IMG/VR virus record: IMGVR_UViG_3300028481_000082
Coordinates: 1 to 8,282 of that record
DNA from: a virus
Lineage: Duplodnaviria > Heunggongvirae > Uroviricota > Caudoviricetes
Reading direction: 5' to 3' (one strand)
Length of the DNA stretch: 8,282 nucleotides
Below the pieces are notes generated by a model. The model searched no databases and was not told the DNA's origin. It saw only the letters and a program-made list of their open reading frames with translations. Shown here piece by piece: positions 1 to 8,282 of the stretch; positions within the stretch are counted from its first letter, which is position 1; every line of letters begins with the position of its first letter. Position numbers and translations under genes: made by a program.

Positions 1-1101
1 ATTGAATCCGTTCGTAAAGGCATGGGATTCATTGATGAAGAGCAGCGTAATTCTATCGGCACCTTAGCGGCTGGCGCACGCCTTGCGTCATCGTCTCCAG
101 AAGCAATGCAATCATGGCTGCAAAACAACGCCAAGGAACTGACTCGCGTCGGTGTTGACCCTAACAGCGTTGCTCAGATGTATCAGCAGAATCCTTCAGG
201 ATTTGGTGAGTTTGTTGATCACCTTGGGATGGCTGCTCTTGGTCCGATTGATTACTTCAATGTTCAGGACAAGATGGCTGGTCGTGAAATTGACCGAGGC
301 AGACTGGCAGAGACAATCCGCAGCAATCAGGCTGGTGAAGCACTTCAGGCGAGAGGGCAAAACCTTTCCTATCAGTCAGCAATGACTGGGCACAATATCG
401 CAGCACAACGCTTGGCTCTGGATCAGCAAGAGTTTGGGTTTAAGATGCAGCAAGCGCAGGAAAAGGCTCAGCAGTTGATTAGTGAAGCACCTAAGCTGTC
501 AGTAAACATGGAAAAAGGCATCGAGACGGCTGTAAACAATGCCACAGCATCATCAAACTCAGCCAATTCTATGAGTGCGCTTGCTCAACAGTTCAGAGCA
601 GAAAAACCAACGACAGGTTTGTTCGGTAACGCACAGAACATGTTCGCAAAACTTACCGGAAGCGATACGACATTGCGTGATTTGCGCATCCGCCAAAATG
701 CCCTTGTTAACAGTCAGGTTCTTAAATTCCTACCTCCCGGCCCAGCAACGGATAAAGACGTTGAGATCGTTCGACAGGGTGCGCCAACTGACATGGATAA
801 CCCTGAGACGGTCGCAAGATGGCTTGATGCAATGGCAAACCTTGAGCGACGAAACGCGCAGTTTAATGAGTTTAAAGCCGAGTGGATGAGCGCGAATGGC
901 AACCCTGGACAATCGCGTAATGGCGGTCAGATATTGGGGTTGGATGTTAAAAAAGGTGAATCATTGGGGAGTGCCGTTAAGCGGTATATGTCAATGAATA
1001 CTGACGCAGCACCAGCGCAAGATTCGACACCTTCAGGAGAAACACCGAATCAGGTTGGATCATATACCTCAAAATCAGGCATTCAATTTACGGTGGAATG
1101 A
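1..1101 (+). CDS. Ejection (DNA-transfer) protein, P22 gp20-like; 5'-partial, C-terminal ~366 aa, start lies upstream of the window
   Basis: Frame is open from base 1 through the first in-window Met at 22 to TGA at 1099-1101. It sits immediately upstream of, and overlaps by 4 nt, the gp16-like gene, matching the P22 order 7-20-16. Gln/Ala/Asn-rich, low-complexity composition is typical of podovirus ejection proteins. Identity is by synteny and composition, not by alignment. Confidence 0.75.
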
Positions 1102-2939
1102 TGAAAGTAACTGCAAACGGTAAGACATTTACCTTCCCTGATGGTACGAGCACGGAAGATATTGGATCTGCCATTGATGAGTATTTTGCTGGACAGTCTG
1201 TTCAGCAACAAACTGTCAGCCAGGATAGCAATGAACCAGCACGTGAAGAACCATCATTGATGCAACAAGCTGGCGATTGGCTCACTGGTGGTCAAAGTGC
1301 AGGGCAAATTGCAGAACAGGCTGGTCGTGGTCTGGTAAACATACCATTTGACGTATTGCAGGGTGGCGCAAGTCTGATTAATGCAATCAGTCAGGGGCTT
1401 GGTGGTCCAAAAGTATTGGATGATGTCTATCGTCCAGTCGATCGACCGACAGACCCTTATGCGCAAACTGGAGAAACAATTGGCGGGTATTTAGTTCCAG
1501 GAGTTGGAACGGCAGGAAGCATGGCTATTGGATCACTGGCAGAGGCCGCAAATCAGAAAGGCGATTTCGCACAAAATGCAGCAAAAAATGCCGGAGTTAA
1601 CCTTGCCGCTCAGGGGGTTCTTTCCGCAGCAGCAAAGGGAATAGGGCGTGGAATAACGGCTATAAAAGGTGATATTGCGCCAGAAGTAGCGAAGAAAATT
1701 GCCACATCAGAATCGATGGGCGTGACACCAATGACATCTGATGTTATCCCGCCGAAAAATGCTTTCACTCGCGGCCTTACTCAGGATGCCGAGGGGGCTT
1801 TGCTCGGGACAGGCTCAAAGCGAGCGGAGCAATATGCAACGCGTAGTAAGCTGGTAAGCAATTATTTTGACCGTTTTGGTGAGTACAACCCTGATGATGT
1901 GGTGAAATCTCTGACCACCACGTTAAGGGGGAGGAAGGATGCCGCTGGCGCTGTTATCAATGACGTCACCAATAAAATGGGTAATGCCGCAGTTGATACC
2001 ACAAATACCATGAATGCTCTGAATACAGCGATCGCAAGACAGGAACGGCTTGGGACGTCTGCCAATCAAAGCCTGCTTACATCCTTGCGTAACCTACGTG
2101 AAGAATTAGCAAACCCTGCAACTGATTTGGATGTTACGTTTGATCTCTTGCGTCAGCACAGAACAGCATTTAGATCTAATGTTCAGGGAGATGCTATGGT
2201 CTTCCCCAACCAGGCAAAAGCAGCTACCAATATGGTAGAGAATGCAATGTCAAAAGACCTTCGTAACGCAGTTGCAAAAAACCTCGGTGCGTCAGACGCA
2301 GCAAAATACCTTAAAGCAAATTCCGATTATGCAAACGTTTATAATAAGGTGCTTAATAAAAACATTGCCAACAAGCTCAACAAGGCAAGCAGTGAAGCCA
2401 GTCCTGAACTTATAAATACCGTTGTATTAAGCAGAAAACCATCTGACGTGAAACGAATCTGGAGCGCACTGGATGATAAGGGGAAAGATGCTATGCGTGC
2501 AGCTTACGTCAGCAAAATAGCGGAAAAGGCCGGGGACTCTCCAGCCAAGTTCATCACTGAAGTTAATAAGCTGAAATCTCAGTCAGGCGGTGAAATTTAC
2601 AACACTATTTTTTCTGGAAAGCACATGAAAGAGCTTGATGCTCTTCATGAAGTTCTACAGCAAACAGCAAGGTCAGACACCGCAAATGTAGTAACTCAGA
2701 CGGGGCAATCGCAAGCCAACAGGATAAGGACGATTGGCGCAACTGCGACCCTTGGCGTATCAATGGGGCTTGAGGCTGGTTTTGGTGCAATGATGCGCTT
2801 GTATGAGTCTAAAGCAGCAAGAAACATGCTTCTCCGCCTTGCAAACGTCAAGCCTGGAACTCCGGCATATGAGCGAGCGTTAAATCAGGCTGCTAACGCC
2901 GTTCGCCCTCTCCTAACTAACGAAGCTACCAGGCAGTAG
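1098..2939 (+). CDS. Ejection (DNA-transfer) protein, P22 gp16-like, 612-613 aa
   Basis: Long ORF with ATG at 1098 overlapping the upstream stop as ATGA; an alternative start is the ATG at 1101. N-terminus [16 protein letters not shown] matches my recollection of the P22 gp16 N-terminus (MKVTANGK...), and the size is close to P22 gp16 (~609 aa). GGTGG lies at 1092-1096. Position between the gp20-like gene and the immunity region fits. Confidence 0.85.
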
Positions 2940-2958
2940 AAATGAACGCCAAGGAAGG

Positions 2959-3288
2959 CTATTTAATTCTCTTTTCAATGGCTGCAATTATTGCTTTTCC
3001 TGATGTTTCAGGAGATTTTGTAGCCATATAAGACGAAAAAATCATGTCGGTCATTCTTTCATAACTTACTATTTCCCACTTAGCCAATGCATGGGACAGT
3101 TTGTAGTTGTCATCAGTTAGTGCCCTTATGGAATTTTTTAAGTGTTTATTCTCTTCAGTTAATCGCGCAATTTTTGTATCAATTTCATGTGAGCGATCTA
3201 ATTCCTTAACCTGTTTCTTGAGGGCAGCTAACCCTGCATATAGTACGCAACAGGATATCCCAAGAGCGAGTACTACTATTTCTAACAC
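2959..3288 (-). CDS. Hypothetical small membrane-anchored coiled-coil protein (109 aa); accessory/moron gene, possible superinfection-exclusion or defence-associated function
   Basis: Minus-strand ORF with GTG start at 3288 preceded by a strong AAGGAGG Shine-Dalgarno (plus-strand CCTCCTT at 3294-3300, 5-nt spacer). Stop TAG is at 2959-2961. N-terminal 22 aa are hydrophobic (LEIVVLALGISCCVLYAGLAAL), followed by a K/E-rich heptad-like segment (KQVKELDRSHEIDTKIARLTEENKHLKNSIRAL). It is AT-rich relative to the flanking structural genes and convergent with gp16. Function is inference only. Confidence 0.65.
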   Translation of the reverse strand: MLEIVVLALGISCCVLYAGLAALKKQVKELDRSHEIDTKIARLTEENKHLKNSIRALTDDNYKLSHALAKWEIVSYERMTDMIFSSYMATKSPETSGKAIIAAIEKRIK

Positions 3289-3662
3289 ACCAACCTCCTT
3301 AGTTTTTCGCAGGATACCAGATGATACTTTATTGGTGGAGTGGTGTGTGAAAACGTGTCAACGACAAACCATCCACAACTTGGACGAATGATTTAGCAAA
3401 AAGTGCTATTTTTGGTGTTTGGTGTCATAGAAAAGTGAATAGCTCACTTTTCAACATTGCATGAAACTTGCAGGAAATGTGACATTACCTTATAGGTAAC
3501 TTCGGCGAAAATGCAGTAAATGTGAAACGTAATGGTTTAAACATGTCGCTAAAGTGGTTGTAAGTTAGCCTCCGAAGGATTGCTGATAGCTTTGTTATAG
3601 TATTAAATGACATTTGACATAGTTGGATACTTAGCTGTGGCTATCAAGATGGAGGTGTGTTC
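3289..3662. promoter_or_regulatory. AT-rich divergent intergenic control region with several dyad symmetries (candidate operators and promoters for both the minus-strand 109-aa gene and the plus-strand Panacea-like operon)
   Basis: 374 bp non-coding and AT-rich. Perfect 9-bp inverted repeat GAAAAGTGA-n5-TCACTTTTC at 3430-3452. Palindrome AATGT-g-ACATT at 3476-3486. Inverted repeat TTACC-ttata-GGTAA at 3485-3499. Palindrome AAATG-a-CATTT at 3605-3615, overlapping a consensus TTGACA hexamer at 3614-3619. GGAGG Shine-Dalgarno at 3651-3655. Exact -10 elements and transcription start sites are not resolvable by eye. Confidence 0.45.
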
Positions 3663-4106
3663 ATGCTTACTTGTTTTGATGTCGCCGACTACTTCCTGTC
3701 GCGGTGTGACGAGGATAGCGGTGACACAATCTCTAATTTAAAATTACAAAAGCTTGTTTACTATGCTCAGGGTTTTTCATTGGCGTTGCTTGGCGAGCCT
3801 CTTTTTCAGAATAAGATGGAAGCTTGGATGCATGGCCCTGTTGTCCCTGAGCTTTATCGCCGTTATAAACAATATGGTAATGGCGCTATCCCTTCTCCAG
3901 AGTCTTTTGATGCTGAAAAATTCAGCGAAGAACAGTTAGAGCTATTAGAAGAAGTCTGGGATGTTTTTGGGCAATTTTCTGCCTGGAAACTGAGGAACAT
4001 GACACACGAAGAGTCACCATGGAGATCAAACTATATTGAGGGTGTTGGTGGTTCTGAAATTAGCTCTAAGGAGATGGCAGAGTACTTTGCAACTCGGATT
4101 AACTAA
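3663..4106 (+). CDS. Panacea-domain (DUF4065 / GepA / SocA-like) protein, 147 aa; putative antitoxin or defence-system component
   Basis: ATG at 3663 with GGAGG 7 nt upstream. The track start at 3657 is an in-frame GTG only 1 nt from the SD, so 3663 is preferred. The protein carries motifs I associate with the DUF4065/Panacea family: SNLKLQKLVYYAQGFSLALLGEPLF and EAWMHGPVVPELYRRYKQYG. The family call is from memory of its consensus, not a search. Confidence 0.6.
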   Translation: MLTCFDVADYFLSRCDEDSGDTISNLKLQKLVYYAQGFSLALLGEPLFQNKMEAWMHGPVVPELYRRYKQYGNGAIPSPESFDAEKFSEEQLELLEEVWDVFGQFSAWKLRNMTHEESPWRSNYIEGVGGSEISSKEMAEYFATRIN

Positions 4107-4110
4107 CGAG

Positions 4111-4530
4111 ATGGCAAGAAAATCTAAAAGGATTATCCCCCCTGCTGAATCTACAGGTAAGTTAAAGTTAGGGCCGCAGTCAGGGGGGAATTCAGATCAA
4201 AAGAAACCGAAATTTTCATTCTGTTACATCCAAAGCTCTCACTGCATAACGAAATGCCAAAAAGATGAGAAAGCTGGCTTAGCTGATAAATTATACAGAT
4301 TAAGTCAACTAACATGGGCAGAGATTAAGCAGCAAGGTAGGCATAAGCTTGGATTTGAGAAGATTGCAAGGGGTGCAATTAAAGCAGGTATCCCCAGTCA
4401 TATAACGGAAGACGTAGATCATTTCTTGGCTTTTAGATTTGATGATTTGAAAGCCATGGTTGGTTATCGTCTTGGATCGACATTTTTTGTTATATGGCTT
4501 GATAGAGAGTTCAACCTATACAAGCACTAA
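4111..4530 (+). CDS. Hypothetical basic 139-aa protein translationally coupled to the Panacea-like gene; candidate toxin or effector partner, family unknown
   Basis: ATG at 4111 lies 4 nt after the upstream stop (TAA 4104-4106) with no strong independent SD, which suggests coupling. The longer track ORF from 4036 starts inside the upstream gene in another frame and is not favoured. Basic N-terminus (MARKSKRIIPP), Cys/His cluster (FCYIQSSHCITKC), and a beta-rich C-terminus (GYRLGSTFFVIWLDREFNLYKH). Followed directly by a terminator. Confidence 0.6.
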   Translation: MARKSKRIIPPAESTGKLKLGPQSGGNSDQKKPKFSFCYIQSSHCITKCQKDEKAGLADKLYRLSQLTWAEIKQQGRHKLGFEKIARGAIKAGIPSHITEDVDHFLAFRFDDLKAMVGYRLGSTFFVIWLDREFNLYKH

Positions 4531-4531
4531 T

Positions 4532-4557
4532 AAAACCCACCGTCAGGTGGGTTTTTT
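4532..4557. terminator. Bidirectional rho-independent terminator between the accessory operon (+) and mnt (-)
   Basis: Stem AAAACCCACC (4532-4541), loop GTCA (4542-4545), stem GGTGGGTTTT (4546-4555), followed by TT on the plus strand. The reverse complement also gives a hairpin followed by a U-run. The mnt stop codon (TGA, plus-strand TCA at 4543-4545) sits in the loop. Confidence 0.75.
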
Positions 4558-4794
4558 GTACAAATCCTTCAGCGTATCAAACACCATCTTCTTAACAAGA
4601 TCTGACTGCTCATCAGCGAGTCGTTCTGCATCGTCACGATATCCAGTCACAGGCGATGGTTTTGATAGAGCATCTTGGACGATTTGTAACAACTCGGAGT
4701 TCATTGATCTCCCATTCGCCTCCGCCCTGAATTTTAATTTCTCCCTTACTTCCATAGGCATACGGAAGTTAAAGTGCGGATCATCTCTAGCCAT
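4543..4794 (-). CDS. mnt: Mnt repressor (ribbon-helix-helix, Arc/MetJ family), maintenance-of-lysogeny repressor of Pant, 83 aa
   Basis: The 83-aa product MARDDPHFNFRMPMEVREKLKFRAEANGRSMNSELLQIVQDALSKPSPVTGYRDDAERLADEQSDLVKK... matches my recollection of P22 Mnt almost residue for residue. ATG at 4792-4794 with GGAGTG SD on the minus strand. Located next to its palindromic operator and divergent from arc. Confidence 0.93.
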   Translation of the reverse strand: MARDDPHFNFRMPMEVREKLKFRAEANGRSMNSELLQIVQDALSKPSPVTGYRDDAERLADEQSDLVKKMVFDTLKDLYKKPT

Positions 4795-4816
4795 GCCATC
4801 ACTCCAAGTTAGTGTA

Positions 4817-4845
4817 TTGACATGATAGAAGCACTCTACTATATT
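4817..4845 (+). promoter_or_regulatory. Pant promoter (rightward; drives arc-ant)
   Basis: -35 TTGACA at 4817-4822, 17-bp spacer, -10 TATATT at 4840-4845. The Arc operator lies in the spacer and the Mnt operator just downstream over the predicted start site, as in P22 immI. Confidence 0.8.
4822..4842. promoter_or_regulatory. Arc operator (Oarc), 21 bp
   Basis: ATGATAGAAGCACTCTACTAT at 4822-4842, identical to the P22 arc operator sequence as I remember it (TAGA/TCTA half-sites), positioned between -35 and -10 of Pant. Confidence 0.85.
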
Positions 4846-4850
4846 CTCAA
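4822..4850 (-). promoter_or_regulatory. Pmnt promoter (leftward; drives mnt), overlapping Pant
   Basis: On the minus strand: -35 TTGAGA (plus coordinates 4845-4850), 17-bp spacer, -10 TATCAT (plus coordinates 4822-4827). Divergent and overlapping with Pant, consistent with the known P22 arrangement. Confidence 0.65.
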
Positions 4851-4870
4851 TAGGTCCACGGTGGACCTAT
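4850..4870. promoter_or_regulatory. Mnt operator (Omnt), perfect 21-bp palindrome
   Basis: ATAGGTCCACGGTGGACCTAT at 4850-4870 is perfectly self-complementary around 4860 and contains the symmetric AGGTCCACGGTGGACCT core I recall as the P22 Mnt operator. It overlaps the predicted Pant start site. Confidence 0.85.
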
Positions 4871-4884
4871 ATTGTGAGGTGAAT

Positions 4885-5046
4885 ATGAAAGGAATGAGCA
4901 AGATGCCGCAGTTCAATTTGCGGTGGCCTAAAGAAGTATTGGATTTGGTACGCAAGGTGGCGGAAGAGAATGGTCGGTCTGTTAACTCTGAGATTTATCA
5001 GAGAGTAATGGAAAGCTTTAAGAAGGAAGGGCGCATTGGCGCGTAA
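4885..5046 (+). CDS. arc: Arc repressor (ribbon-helix-helix), 53 aa
   Basis: ATG at 4885 with GAGGTG SD. Product [53 protein letters not shown] matches P22 Arc as I remember it, including the 53-aa length. The longer track ORF from 4822 would run through the operators and is rejected. Confidence 0.93.
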
Positions 5047-5113
5047 AGTGGAAGCCCCAACTGCGGGAACAGTCAGGGCTTCGGTTGTCAGTAAATCCGT
5101 GGAGAAAAACCAA
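5045..5113 (-). ncRNA. sar: sar-like small antisense RNA (~68 nt) complementary to the ant ribosome-binding site and the arc-ant intercistronic region
   Basis: P22 is known to make a 68-69 nt antisense RNA (sar) from a promoter inside the 5' end of ant. Here the minus strand has a TATACT -10 (plus coordinates 5121-5126). A transcript starting near 5113 would cover the ant ATG (5115) and GGAG (5101-5104) and contain a stable hairpin (GAAGCCC...GGGCTTC, 5051-5082) followed by CACUUU. Coordinates are approximate and inferred. Confidence 0.5.
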
Positions 5114-5114
5114 C

Positions 5115-6017
5115 ATGAATAGTATAGCAATTTTAGAAGCAGTGAACACCTCTTACGTACCATTCAACGGTCAGCAAATTATCACCGCCATGGCTGCCGG
5201 AGTTGCATACGTTGCGATGAAGCCAATCGTTGAAAACCTTGGAATGAGTTGGGGTACTCAGCAACAAAAACTTATGAAACAACTAGATAAGTTCAACTGT
5301 ATTCATATGAATATGGTTGCCGCTGATGGGAAGCTTCGTAAGCTACTCTGCCTTCCTTTGAAGAAGTTAAATGGATGGCTGTTCAGCATCAACCCTGAGA
5401 AAGTTCGAGCTGACATCCGCGATAAACTGATTCAGTACCAGGAAGAATGCTTTACTGTACTGCATGACTACTGGACAAAGGGAAAGGCAGAAAATGCACG
5501 TAAGAAAACATCTGTTGATGACAGGACTCCGCTTCGTGATGCTGTAAATATGCTAGTCAGCAAAAAGCATCTAATGTACCCAGAAGCTTACGCAATGATT
5601 CATCAGCGTTTCAATGTGGAAAGTATTGAAGAGCTTGATGCATCTCAGATACCGCAAGCCGTAGAGTACATCCACAGGGTAGTGCTTGAAGGTGAGTTCA
5701 TCGGCAAACAAGAGAAGAAAACCAACGAGCTTTCTGCAAAAGAAGCAAGCAGCCTTGTATGGCTATGGGATTATGCCAACCGCTCACAGGCATTATTCCG
5801 CGAACTGTATCCGGCGCTGAAACAAATTCAATCGAACTATTCCGGCAGATGTCATGACTGCGGTTATGAGTTCTCCCGTATTATCGATATAGCGAGAGAC
5901 GTTTTAATCAATCACTCACGAGATGTTGATATCAATGAGCCAGACGGACCAACGAATCTTTCCGCATGGATGAGACTTAAGAATAAAGAATTACCTCCTT
6001 CAGTACATAACTACTGA
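5115..6017 (+). CDS. ant: Antirepressor Ant, 300 aa
   Basis: ATG at 5115 with GGAG 10 nt upstream gives exactly 300 aa, the P22 Ant length. N-terminus [47 protein letters not shown] matches my recollection of P22 Ant. Directly downstream of arc in the immI arrangement. The track start at 5085 has no RBS. Confidence 0.9.
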
Positions 6018-6036
6018 CAGATAACCAACGCAACGA

Positions 6037-6059
6037 CCCAGCTTCGGCTGGGTTTTTTT
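6037..6059 (+). terminator. Rho-independent terminator after ant
   Basis: Stem CCCAGC (6037-6042), loop TTCG, stem GCTGGG (6047-6052), followed by seven T (6053-6059). Confidence 0.8.
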
Positions 6060-6117
6060 ATGCCCAAAATTCACCGTAGCCATGCTGCGGCGATTCCTTG
6101 TATCTGGAGCAAATTAA

Positions 6118-8103
6118 ATGACAGATTCAATAAATGCCAATGTTGTAGTAAGTATGCCATCGCAACTCTTCACTATGGCTCGTTCTTTTAAAGCAGTTGC
6201 CAATGGCAAAATTTATATCGGTAAAATTGACACTGACCCGGTAAATCCTGAAAACCAGATTCAGGTTTATGTAGAAAACGAAGATGGTTCTCATGTTCCT
6301 GTTTCGCAACCAATAATCATTAACGCTGCTGGTTACCCTGTATATAACGGACAGATTGCCAAATTCGTAACTGTGCAAGGCCATTCTATGGCTGTATATG
6401 ATGCATATGGCGTACAGCAATTTTACTATCCAAACGTATTGAAGTATGACCCTGATCAGTTAAGGCAGGAGCTTGAAGGAGATAAAGGTTTTTTAATCCC
6501 TGGTGGTCAGCAGGAAAGATTTTATGACCTACGCGCATTTGTTGAGCCAGGAGACCCAGCAGCTCCAGACTACACGCAGGCTTTCAAACGCGCCATCGCC
6601 TCTGGTAACGGACGAGTTTTTGTCAACGTTCCAGTGGAATTTACAGAAGATCTGACTATCCCGGCGAAGTTCCGCGTAGATATTGGTGAATGTGGTTATC
6701 TGTACACTAACTCAGCAAAAGTACGCATTGAAGGATTTATCAATACTATCGGGGGTAATGATCCGTATCGCGGTTACATCCATCCATTTGGCGTTGACTC
6801 GTCAACAGTGGCGGGTATTTACACGATGCCTGTAACACTCATGGTTCCGGAAGATTACCGGACCATTCAGGAAGCAATTGACGATATCCCAAATAATTAT
6901 TGGCAGAGAATTATTATCTCAATTGCACCAGGAACTTATGATGAAGACATAGTAATCAGAAGCAAGAGGGGGTGCACACCTCTATTCCCACCTAGCGCAT
7001 CGCAACAAGCAAACATTGTTATAGTAAGTAGAACTACCGACAGAACAACAGTTAATGTTAGGTCAGCCCAGGTATTTTCATGCGGAGGCACACCATACAG
7101 CCCAGAGTTGCACGCTTTAAACTTTACAAATAGAACACACAGTGATGAAAATGCTTCAGTTGAATTTTATGGATGCACATCTGGCGCTGTTAATGATTGT
7201 TCATTCAATGGGGTAGGAGTTGATAAGTGTATTGAGGCATATAATAGTACAATATCAGTTGAATCATGCGATTTCGGTAACGAAATTAATGATAAAGGGA
7301 TGGTTGTAAAGCATGGAGGAGTATTAAGCTCAAACTCAACAAGAATAGGACAGGCGCTAAAGCCAATGTCTGGCACACTAAAAAGTTGGGTTGCTGTTTC
7401 GATAGGCGGTATCATTATCGGTAATGATTTTGGTATGTGCATTGGTAAAGTTGCGCAAAGTAGGGTTGATGGAGTACAGGTAGGGCTTATAACTGAAACA
7501 GCTACAAAATCAATTAATGGAGTAACATCTTCATTTACGCTTGCGACAACAAGGCACCATACTCAATTTCAAGACTATGATAAATTTACCAATAAAGTAA
7601 CCGGCTCAGGTTCAGGGTTGGAATATTATGCAGAAGGTGGATTAGTTGTAAGAGCGGGGACTGTTGGCGGTACGGCACTTGTAAGATATAAAAGAGAGCG
7701 ACGGCTTGTATTAAATTATGAAACATTTAACTATCTTGGTTTTGCTGTTGCTTATGGAATTACATCTGGAGTTAATTCACTAAATGGTTTTATAGTTTGT
7801 GGCTCCGTGGAATCAGGAAATTACTTTGGAATAAGGTATATAGGAAATGAAGCAAAAGGTATAATATGTAAGGATGGAGTGCAGTCAACGACTACATTAC
7901 TTAACAGCACAAAAACATATGGGACATGGACGTGCAAATATGTAGGAAAGGGTGACGGGCAGTTAATTATTATGCACAATGATACATATGCTGGTCATAT
8001 AAATGGAGTTAAGTTATCATCATATGATGGAACATATTTCGAGGCCTACATAACAGACGATAGAATACAGCTATTCGAAATGGATTTTATTGCAAGCGCT
8101 TAA
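6118..8103 (+). CDS. Tailspike protein (P22 gene 9 homologue), 661 aa; conserved head-binding N-terminal domain plus a divergent beta-helix receptor-binding domain
   Basis: ATG at 6118 with GGAG at 6105-6108. The N-terminal ~115 aa ([60 protein letters not shown]...[15 protein letters not shown]...NVLKYDPDQ) is clearly homologous to the P22 tailspike head-binding domain and, by memory, closer to the Sf6/HK620 type. The remainder does not resemble the P22 endorhamnosidase domain. GC drops from roughly 47-60% to roughly 30-38% from about 6950 onward. Confidence 0.93.
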
Positions 8104-8141
8104 ATCAATTGTCTGGTTAATTATAAATTGTTAAATGAAAA

Positions 8142-8164
8142 GAAGGTGGCGTTACACCACCTTC
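8142..8164 (-). terminator. Hairpin likely acting as a rho-independent terminator for a convergent minus-strand transcript downstream of the tailspike gene
   Basis: Stem GAAGGTGG (8142-8149), loop CGTTACA, stem CCACCTTC (8157-8164). On the minus strand it is followed by UUUUCAUUU. On the plus strand it is not followed by a U-run, so it is a weak terminator for the tailspike gene. Confidence 0.45.
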
Positions 8165-8282
8165 CCATCAAGCCAGTCCGCCCACCACTGCATCATTTCT
8201 CTGCGCTTATCGAGATACTGAGCATGGTTGTAAATTCAGCAAACGACGTAATGTGTTTGACAAAAAATTAGCGCAAGAAGAC

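Follow-up and report, generated by a model that had tools for sequence, protein, structure and literature searches.

What fills the space between gene 16, which encodes an ejection protein, and the repressor gene mnt in a P22-like phage, and what might the genes found there do? The question is raised here by IMG/VR virus record IMGVR_UViG_3300028481_000082, of which positions 1 to 8,282 were analysed (this whole stretch of 8,282 nucleotides (nt) is called the window). By its listing of open reading frames (ORFs) and by Pfam scans, the window comes from a P22-like (Lederbergvirus-type) phage and spans the end of the late operon and the immI region. Between gene 16 and mnt, at positions 2940-4560, it carries a short gene on the minus strand (orf109), a long non-coding segment, and two genes on the plus strand (panA and orf139; Table 1). 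This interval is the known hypervariable accessory ("moron") slot of P22-like phages, and its description as a slot filled by cassettes is one that we hold with high confidence. Taken as a whole, the locus is probably best explained as a swappable slot in which an analogue of sieA, orf109, lies next to PanA-orf139, a putative defence pair of the toxin-antitoxin (TA) type.

A slot with two exchangeable cassettes

In P22 the same place is taken by sieA, which lies on the minus strand directly after gene 16; next come a non-coding stretch of about 400 bp, then orf59a, and then mnt. Among 66 P22-like phages, sieA is present in only 22, and its place is then always between genes 16 and 9 (Leavitt et al., PMC10883804), which agrees with a known variable slot. 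The window was compared by BLAST with four relatives: P22, ST160, Emek, and phiv205-1. P22 aligns with window positions 1063-2968 (P22 locus sequence 437-2332), a match that covers gene 16 and ends at 2968; homology returns in a 35-bp island at 3285-3319, which corresponds to the P22 sieA start and leader, and then again from 4534 on. ST160 aligns through gene 16 and orf109 as far as 3319. Emek and phiv205-1 are 99.4-99.7% identical to the window over 3286-4560, and the rest, including gene 16, is matched only in patches. The ST160-type and the Emek-type homologies overlap at 3289-3319. These breakpoints show that the interval is a substitution at the slot and that it consists of two cassettes, which are independently exchangeable; they meet in the leader of 31 bp (3289-3319), and the terminator marks their end.

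An earlier reading of this DNA, made from the letters alone (the sequence-only reading), had described a single island inserted between gene 16 and mnt. Neither part of that description holds. The event is a replacement, since P22 has sieA and orf59a at this position, Emek has a gp38-like gene, and other prophages have still other antisense or forward genes; and the two cassettes assort independently. Thus, in E. coli NCTC11121 orf109 is paired with a different forward gene, in Emek the PanA cassette is paired with an antisense gene like Sf6 gp38, and in the O111 and ES5 prophages the slot holds another antisense gene together with a transthyretin-like gene. The arrangement exactly as in the window is found in E. 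coli GPEC859. Among 5,426 complete E. coli genomes, orf109 is present in 17, the PanA/orf139 allele of the window in 48, and the non-coding segment in 85. E212 carries an orf139 allele that is 53% identical in amino acids (aa) between the same flanks, which are 98% and 97% identical.

The 31-bp linker consists of the leader and Shine-Dalgarno (SD) sequence of the antisense gene. It is 93-100% identical in P22, where it lies directly upstream of the sieA start, and in ST160, NCTC11121, and the O111 prophages, and the genes that neighbour it differ. Cassettes would be swapped by homologous recombination at short linkers, at 3289-3319 on one side and at 4532-4557 on the other. Compared with the sieA/orf59a region of P22, the locus has the same surroundings: gene 16 borders it to the left, and to its right come the terminator, mnt, arc, ant, sar, and gene 9. 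In both phages a small membrane-protein gene in antisense orientation comes right after gene 16, with an identical type of 31-bp leader and SD sequence. The difference is that orf59a is replaced here by the forward PanA-orf139 genes and a non-coding segment of 330 nt. The locus is therefore canonical and its genes are not, so that the sequence-only reading of a horizontally acquired accessory module stands in a modified form: horizontally exchanged cargo at the gene 16/mnt junction, unlike the P22 sieA/orf59a cargo and with a candidate defence-type module included.

The same reading had set the interval apart by its base composition, about 35% GC against 50-60% in the flanks. The GC content of 2940-4560 is 0.398, compared with 0.474 for gene 16, 0.489 for gene 20, 0.444 for mnt, 0.448 for arc, 0.431 for ant, and 0.420 for the whole right flank. 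In windows of 60 nt the mean is 0.398 for the interval (range 0.317-0.500) and 0.472 for gene 16 (0.317-0.600). A dip is thus real, but the contrast had been overstated, because the interval lies no more than 7-8 points below its left flank and 2-5 points below its right one. In addition, the tailspike gene is equally low or lower: its C-terminal part has a GC content of 0.406, and the lowest-GC stretch of 1621 nt in the window (start 6651, GC 0.396) lies within it. At third codon positions, GC is 0.31, 0.41, and 0.36 in the three genes of the interval, 0.40 in gene 16, and 0.30 in the tailspike gene.

Could the low GC then be an ordinary compositional fluctuation in a mosaic genome, with nothing present beyond the canonical sieA region? 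A step of 2-8 points, a 3' part of the tailspike gene that reaches the same level, and the 11-13% of other same-size windows in the sequence that equal the control region in inverted-repeat score are what such a fluctuation would give. Nevertheless, we consider this very unlikely, given a gene content unlike that of P22, sharp homology breakpoints, patchy occurrence (17-85 of the 5,426 genomes), and more than 99% identity between Salmonella and E. coli phages whose flanks have diverged; the breakpoint mapping has already largely refuted it. Patchy presence and atypical composition, two marks by which a moron is recognized, are both found, the second with a modest contrast, GC being 4-8 points lower than in the adjacent genes.

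The PanA-orf139 pair

The second cassette consists of two closely spaced genes. PanA has a ribosome-binding site (GGAGG, 7 nt before ATG 3663), and the Prokaryotic Genome Annotation Pipeline (PGAP) uses the same start, not GTG 3657, naming the product a "Panacea domain-containing protein" of 147 aa. Residues 30-122 match Pfam PF13274, SocA_Panacea (E = 1.9e-24; 87.2 bits versus a cut-off of 25.7). The partner gene, orf139, has been annotated as 139, 147, 160, or 161 aa in different records, with start candidates at window positions 4036, 4087, and 4111; the 161-aa form is that of Emek (locus sequence 4260-4745). When 43 diverse homologues are aligned, the Met at ATG 4111 is invariant, which makes the protein 139 aa long, and PGAP agrees. 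This ATG lies 4 nt past the PanA stop codon and has no good SD sequence, which suggests that translation of orf139 is coupled to that of PanA.

The pairing is conserved over large distances. PanA (143-147 aa) is found directly upstream of the orf139 homologue in all six distant loci: an Aeromonas P2-like prophage, a Solidesulfovibrio phage region, an Acidobacteria chromosome, a Morganella prophage end, a Providencia phage, and a Pantoea element. The neighbouring genes are unrelated. The spacing between the two genes is -8 to +6 nt in five of the six; it is 35 nt in Solidesulfovibrio, where the partner has been called short (122 aa). With its 4-nt gap and with these six loci from different orders and phyla, the pair shows the synteny by which Kurata et al. 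recognized a two-gene PanAT module.

Indeed, the pair has been catalogued before. The Emek proteins YP_006560565/YP_006560566 are listed as PanAT cluster T1, with the descriptors noNTD, antitoxin-first, overlap -62, and an HHpred assignment of the partner as "mRNase" (Kurata et al. 2022, PMC8832971). T1, with about 217 entries, is one of the two largest clusters of PanA partners (Kurata et al. dataset, PMC8832971). The window and Emek share 99.4% identity over 3286-4560, and with it the stand-alone PanA, the antitoxin-first order, and the "mRNase" partner. No difference in sequence separates the pairs; what differs is the start, placed here at ATG 4111 (139 aa) instead of that of the 161-aa form, the antisense gene, which is orf109 here and not Emek gp14, and the position of mnt, which here lies directly past the terminator. 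Stand-alone Panacea proteins neutralise toxins directly, and a role as sensors has been proposed for them (Ernits et al. 2023).

Both the type VI TA system SocAB of Caulobacter and the present pair contain a Panacea domain, in SocA and PanA, respectively. The likeness has limits. PanA was rejected as a SocA equivalog, since it scores 71.4 bits against a cut-off of 190 for NCBIfam NF047745, and its partner has a predicted RelE fold and is not SocB. SocA is a ClpXP adaptor, and against this background it is curious that a gene for a ClpP-like protease lies just past the PanA cassette in phiv205-1 (locus sequence 4803-5339), EC.P3 (2802-3338), and E. coli PA45B (3768-4304); it is co-oriented with and downstream of an Arc/Mnt-like gene, and it is absent from the window.

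What kind of protein is the partner? A word-indexed search found 182 clusters in the orf139 family, and an exhaustive profile search found 1,545 representatives, 866 of them at E <=1e-10. Nearly all members are stand-alone proteins of 130-146 aa that lack a Pfam domain. Structure prediction confidently gives orf139 a RelE/ParE (BECR) fold, in which helices pack on a 4-stranded antiparallel sheet; the model also has a basic, disordered N-terminus of about 30-45 residues and an insert between strands. Over 171 aligned sequences (median identity to the query 40%, with some close cluster members included), G81 and E83 are conserved in 100%, R109 in 98%, D131 and Y137 in 96%, H139 in 94%, R120 in 87%, and H78 in 86%. 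These residues recall the catalytic set of YoeB, which is Glu, Arg, His, and Tyr. Judged by this alignment, the pattern would be that expected of an active ribonuclease (RNase) of the RelE type. Compared with RelE, YoeB, YafQ, and HigB, orf139 differs in its basic disordered N-terminus and strand insert, in having no Pfam or PDB profile match, in pairing with PanA rather than with RelB, YefM, DinJ, or HigA, and in that its role as a toxin is a predicted one.

The sole sequence match of orf139 in the defence database PADLOC is the Menshen protein NsnC (positions 178-279 of 284; E = 5.9e-6). NsnC's C-terminal domain has been named PB-BECR1, a YafQ-like RNase domain with an H-R-H triad (2025 study, PMC12065111), and orf139 keeps H78, R109, and H139. 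However, orf139 is free-standing and has no inPIN N-terminal domain. The candidate assignment of the locus as a Menshen system was rejected, because the match is to the effector domain only and the neighbours are PanA and mnt, not NsnA (ParB-DUF262) or NsnB (ABC ATPase).

From these features the following mechanism can be proposed. PanA, which is acidic (24 D+E versus 13 K+R), would bind the basic orf139 and hold this RelE/BECR-fold protein inactive, the two being made as a coupled pair in the lysogen. A trigger, for example a superinfection that is sensed by PanA or destabilises it, would free orf139, which might then cleave mRNA or other RNA, arrest the cell, and so abort the infection. The most likely function of the pair is that of an accessory or defence module of the prophage; that it has a TA or defence function is, in our assessment, about as likely as not.

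Several results weigh against this interpretation. The Emek partner, expressed from pBAD33 in E. coli, was scored as "not toxic", and the same result was obtained for another member of T1, that of E. coli MOD1 (overlap -20) (PMC8832971 Table S1). None of 43 family members has a Pfam match, and orf139 has no PDB profile match, both at E up to 10. In addition, E. coli YafQ could not be aligned significantly with the family by hhalign, and for this reason the equivalence of the catalytic residues is one that we infer. PADLOC does not recognise the pair as a defence system. No sigma-70-like promoter above chance was found by position weight matrix and tool scans on either strand of 3260-3700, the non-coding region before panA (best score 9.3; mean of the best scores in shuffles 11.4). 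Finally, the late transcript, which in P22 is antiterminated by gp23, would read through the slot toward gene 9 in the sense direction for PanA-orf139 and antisense to orf109, and late read-through would thus transcribe PanA-orf139 in sense during lytic growth.

The toxicity results need to be read with the constructs in mind. SocB, a genuine toxin, was also scored as "not toxic" in the same assay (PMC8832971 Table S1). The Emek construct followed the 161-aa annotation, so that 22 extra residues precede the Met that is invariant in the family. For MOD1, the overlap of -20 is consistent with the 147-aa form that starts at TTG 4087, which would add 8 residues. The published T1 toxicity tests therefore appear to have used N-terminally extended proteins, which is shown for Emek and inferred for MOD1.

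The same results are the ground for a rival explanation, in which orf139 has nothing to do with toxicity or defence and is instead a non-toxic regulator with a RelE fold, or an RNA-binding factor, that acts in lytic growth and is made mainly by late read-through. Two T1 members that are harmless in E. coli, the lack of an above-chance promoter upstream, the orientation of the pair in the sense of the late operon, and the missing PADLOC system match are all consistent with such a role. We think it rather unlikely. Near-invariant E83, R109, D131, Y137, and H139 in a RelE-type fold argue for a conserved active site, the sequence resembles a defence effector domain, and the pair is also found in non-phage chromosomes, such as that of Acidobacteria; the harmlessness was seen with constructs that appear to have been extended and in an assay that missed SocB too.

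A different role, in counter-defence, would make PanA a broad antitoxin of the phage against RelE/BECR effectors of the host (for example, effectors like Menshen NsnC), with orf139 as a decoy or co-factor. Panacea is a hyperpromiscuous domain, able to evolve neutralisation of toxins that are not its cognate ones (PMC8832971), and a phage-borne module in the sense of the late operon whose second protein resembles the NsnC effector domain would suit this purpose. Nevertheless, PanA and orf139 are strictly paired outside phages as well, and nothing points to cross-neutralisation; we regard counter-defence as highly improbable. We return, then, to the view of the pair as a prophage-borne TA or defence module. 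In a more speculative form of it, which we offer tentatively, the T1 partner is a latent RNase effector that is harmless until PanA senses a phage, and P22-like prophages carry in the sieA slot a widespread, unrecognised abortive-infection system with an evolutionary link to the Menshen effector domain. Such latency would explain why over-expression was non-toxic.

The sieA position, the non-coding segment, and control signals

The first cassette is orf109. Its product has a single N-terminal transmembrane (TM) segment (Kyte-Doolittle hydropathy peak 2.43, residues 4-22), a long, charged, heptad-rich coiled coil, and a strongly conserved C-terminal stretch of 40 residues with the motif KWEIxSYERMTDMIFSSYMATKSPETSG. 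The AlphaFold2 model consists of two helices, 2-90 and 96-108 (mean confidence, pLDDT, 84.6). The protein falls in phrog_8100, of unknown function (E = 1.4e-69), and its family is small, with only 14 clusters in a database of 5.8 billion proteins, from E. coli, Salmonella, and Klebsiella. The Klebsiella homologue is likewise convergent with gene 16 of a P22-like prophage, where gp16 is of the SLT type.

SieA is a multi-TM inner-membrane protein of 164 aa (Leavitt et al., PMC10883804). In comparison, orf109 has one TM segment and a coiled coil in 109 aa; as a SieA homologue it was rejected (BLASTP E = 0.31 versus P22 SieA), and the FxRYPxEAxxFNK motif and multi-TM topology that characterise SieA types A-C are absent from it. 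It was also rejected as a homologue of gp14, the gene product at this position in Emek (BLASTP E = 18). The location, however, is that of sieA: between genes 16 and 9 of a P22-like phage, antisense to the late operon. Without similarity to SieA, at the same position, and behind the same leader, orf109 is a positional analogue of sieA and not a homologue. The sequence-only reading had noted that this gene is antisense to late read-through and had suggested expression in the lysogen, and its placement does coincide with that of sieA, which the prophage expresses. We propose that orf109 is a bitopic inner-membrane coiled-coil protein, transcribed leftward and made in the lysogen from a sieA-type leader. 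An envelope or exclusion function expressed by the prophage would be the most plausible, with low confidence; an exclusion-type role in particular can be put forward only tentatively, by analogy of position, and the lack of any homologue of known function counts on the other side.

The stop codons of gene 16 and orf109 converge 19 nt apart (2940-2958), and there is no hairpin in this gap. Late transcripts must therefore cross orf109 in antisense, and orf109 transcripts must enter gene 16.

To the right of the 31-bp linker lies the non-coding segment. Positions 3320-3545 are 98.2% identical between the window and E212, and the identity to EC.P3 is likewise 98%, whereas PanA is only 68% identical in nucleotides (71% in aa) and orf139 only 60% (53% in aa) between the window and E212; the terminator is 97% identical. 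The coding identities were about the same when recomputed pairwise as in the multiple alignment. The segment is not an integral part of the PanA-orf139 module, a possibility that was rejected because homology in other genera begins at the PanA ribosome-binding site; outside P22-like phages, for example in Morganella, Providencia, and Pantoea, the DNA before PanA does not contain the segment. Most simply, it would belong to the phage backbone, as a conserved flank for recombination or as a regulatory region.

A dedicated regulatory RNA or operator array within these approximately 330 nt is a possibility, and it leads to another rival explanation, that the real functional novelty of the locus lies in 3320-3656 and serves both of the divergent cassettes. 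The segment is 98% conserved beside genes at 60-68%, has not been annotated in any of the 85 genomes in which it occurs, and contains a perfect 9-bp inverted repeat at 3430-3452, which is invariant in Emek, E212, and EC.P3, as well as direct repeats. In folding as RNA its z-scores are -2.3 (plus strand) and -2.1 (minus strand). On the other hand, it is missing from PanA-orf139 loci outside P22-like phages, it has no Rfam match, and no promoter or terminator in it rises above chance; with two alleles only there is no covariation signal, and a recombination flank explains the conservation equally well. An RNA or operator array as the main novelty is thus distinctly unlikely, and the simpler reading as a recombination flank or backbone region is preferred.

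The segment also has a 6-bp palindrome (3485-3499) and a 14-nt direct repeat (at 3469 and 3512). A 42-aa ORF on the minus strand (3485-3613) was rejected as a hidden gene: an SD sequence is missing, E212 lacks the ATG, and the changes (7 of 42) are mostly non-synonymous. A truncated copy in E. coli ETEC6334 retains only the left 198 nt of the segment (3320-3517). It occurs without PanA in an unannotated gap of about 600 nt (locus sequence 2264-2860), next to an Arc-family gene and another, different gene on the minus strand, and it suggests a further breakpoint near window position 3517.

The claims that the sequence-only reading had made about signals fared unevenly. Genes in both orientations with ribosome-binding sites of their own are indeed present, with AAGGAGG before the GTG of orf109 and GGAGG before the ATG of PanA. 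The "palindrome-rich control region" amounts to one 9-bp and two 6-bp inverted repeats, a weak enrichment: the score has P ~0.02 against shuffles but is equalled by the share of windows given above. At 4532-4555 there is a strong hairpin (dG -15.8 kcal/mol, z = -5.1, by direct folding); the terminator scan had missed it, probably because an A/T extension of the stem uses up the T-run, and folding recovered it. This terminator is not private to the module. Its sequence is common to P22, ST160, Emek, and E. coli prophages, and the annotation of Emek calls it a terminator. The mnt stop codon (4543-4545) sits inside its loop, and the same junction is found in P22 and relatives, which makes it a shared boundary element. 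Of the own promoter and terminator that a moron should have, the interval thus has a terminator shared with the mnt junction and promoter scores at or below chance; with no promoter detectable by consensus in 3260-3700, the claim of an independently expressed module is not supported. A search of Rfam over the interval at E <=1 gave no RNA family, only sub-threshold terminator matches; outside the interval it gave sar.

Surroundings of the slot and meaning for P22-like phages

To the right of the slot, window positions 4534-6086 are 89% identical to P22 in nucleotides. Strong divergent promoters, Pant (score 17.2) and Pmnt (13.5), lie within 4817-4850, and a canonical sar RNA overlaps the end of arc and the start of ant. 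The tailspike joins a P22 head-binding domain (residues 4-114) to a C-terminal part that is not from P22 and has a weak pectinesterase-like match. No single stretch in any complete E. coli genome or phage record accounts for at least 80% of the window. E. coli GPEC859, which has a PGAP-annotated gene 16 homologue and the whole island as here, differs in immI and tailspike. The features of the window are collected in Table 1.

Table 1. Features of the window, with positions, strands, and remarks
Feature	Position	Strand	Remarks
gene 20	22-1101	+	
gene 16	1098-2939	+	ejection protein; left edge of slot; about 70% nt identity to P22 gene 16
studied interval	2940-4560	both	
orf109	2959-3288	-	109 aa; AAGGAGG 5 nt before GTG start (3288)
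conserved 31-bp linker	3289-3319		leader and SD sequence of the antisense gene of the first cassette; SD AAGGAGG at 3294-3300 (-)
long non-coding segment	3320-3656		core 3320-3545; specific to P22-like phages with PanA cassettes
perfect 9-bp inverted repeat	3430-3452		GAAAAGTGA-ATAGC-TCACTTTTC; candidate operator or hairpin
panA	3663-4106	+	147 aa; stand-alone Panacea (DUF4065, SocA-like) protein of antitoxin type
orf139	4111-4530	+	139 aa, basic; PanA partner (Kurata cluster T1); candidate RNase effector
terminator hairpin and T-run	4532-4557		right-hand conserved linker of slot; between convergent orf139 and mnt
mnt	4543-4794	-	right edge of slot, start of immI; Pfam Arc E = 4.5e-30, Repressor_Mnt E = 1.3e-17
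arc	4885-5046	+	true start is M22 of the listed ORF
sar antisense RNA	5047-5114	-	Rfam RF00262, 91.5 bits
ant	5085-6017	+	
tailspike gene	6118-8103	+	chimeric

The novelty of the locus is low. Since public genomes (Emek, phiv205-1, and E. coli GPEC859) already contain both the locus and its cargo, and since the pair has been entered in the PanAT catalogue and assayed as a predicted PanAT system, the finding is an ordinary one. What is added concerns the partner protein: a corrected start codon, which many records mis-annotate; a predicted RelE/BECR fold with conserved, putatively catalytic residues; and a link in sequence to the effector domain of Menshen NsnC. For the P22-like phages, the locus is a textbook case of the exchange of cassettes bounded by linkers, and orf109 is a second, unrelated gene family at the sieA position and thus a candidate for a new exclusion protein. 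If PanA-orf139 is indeed an RNase system triggered by infection, a function would be gained for a very large, uncharacterised family of PanA partners.

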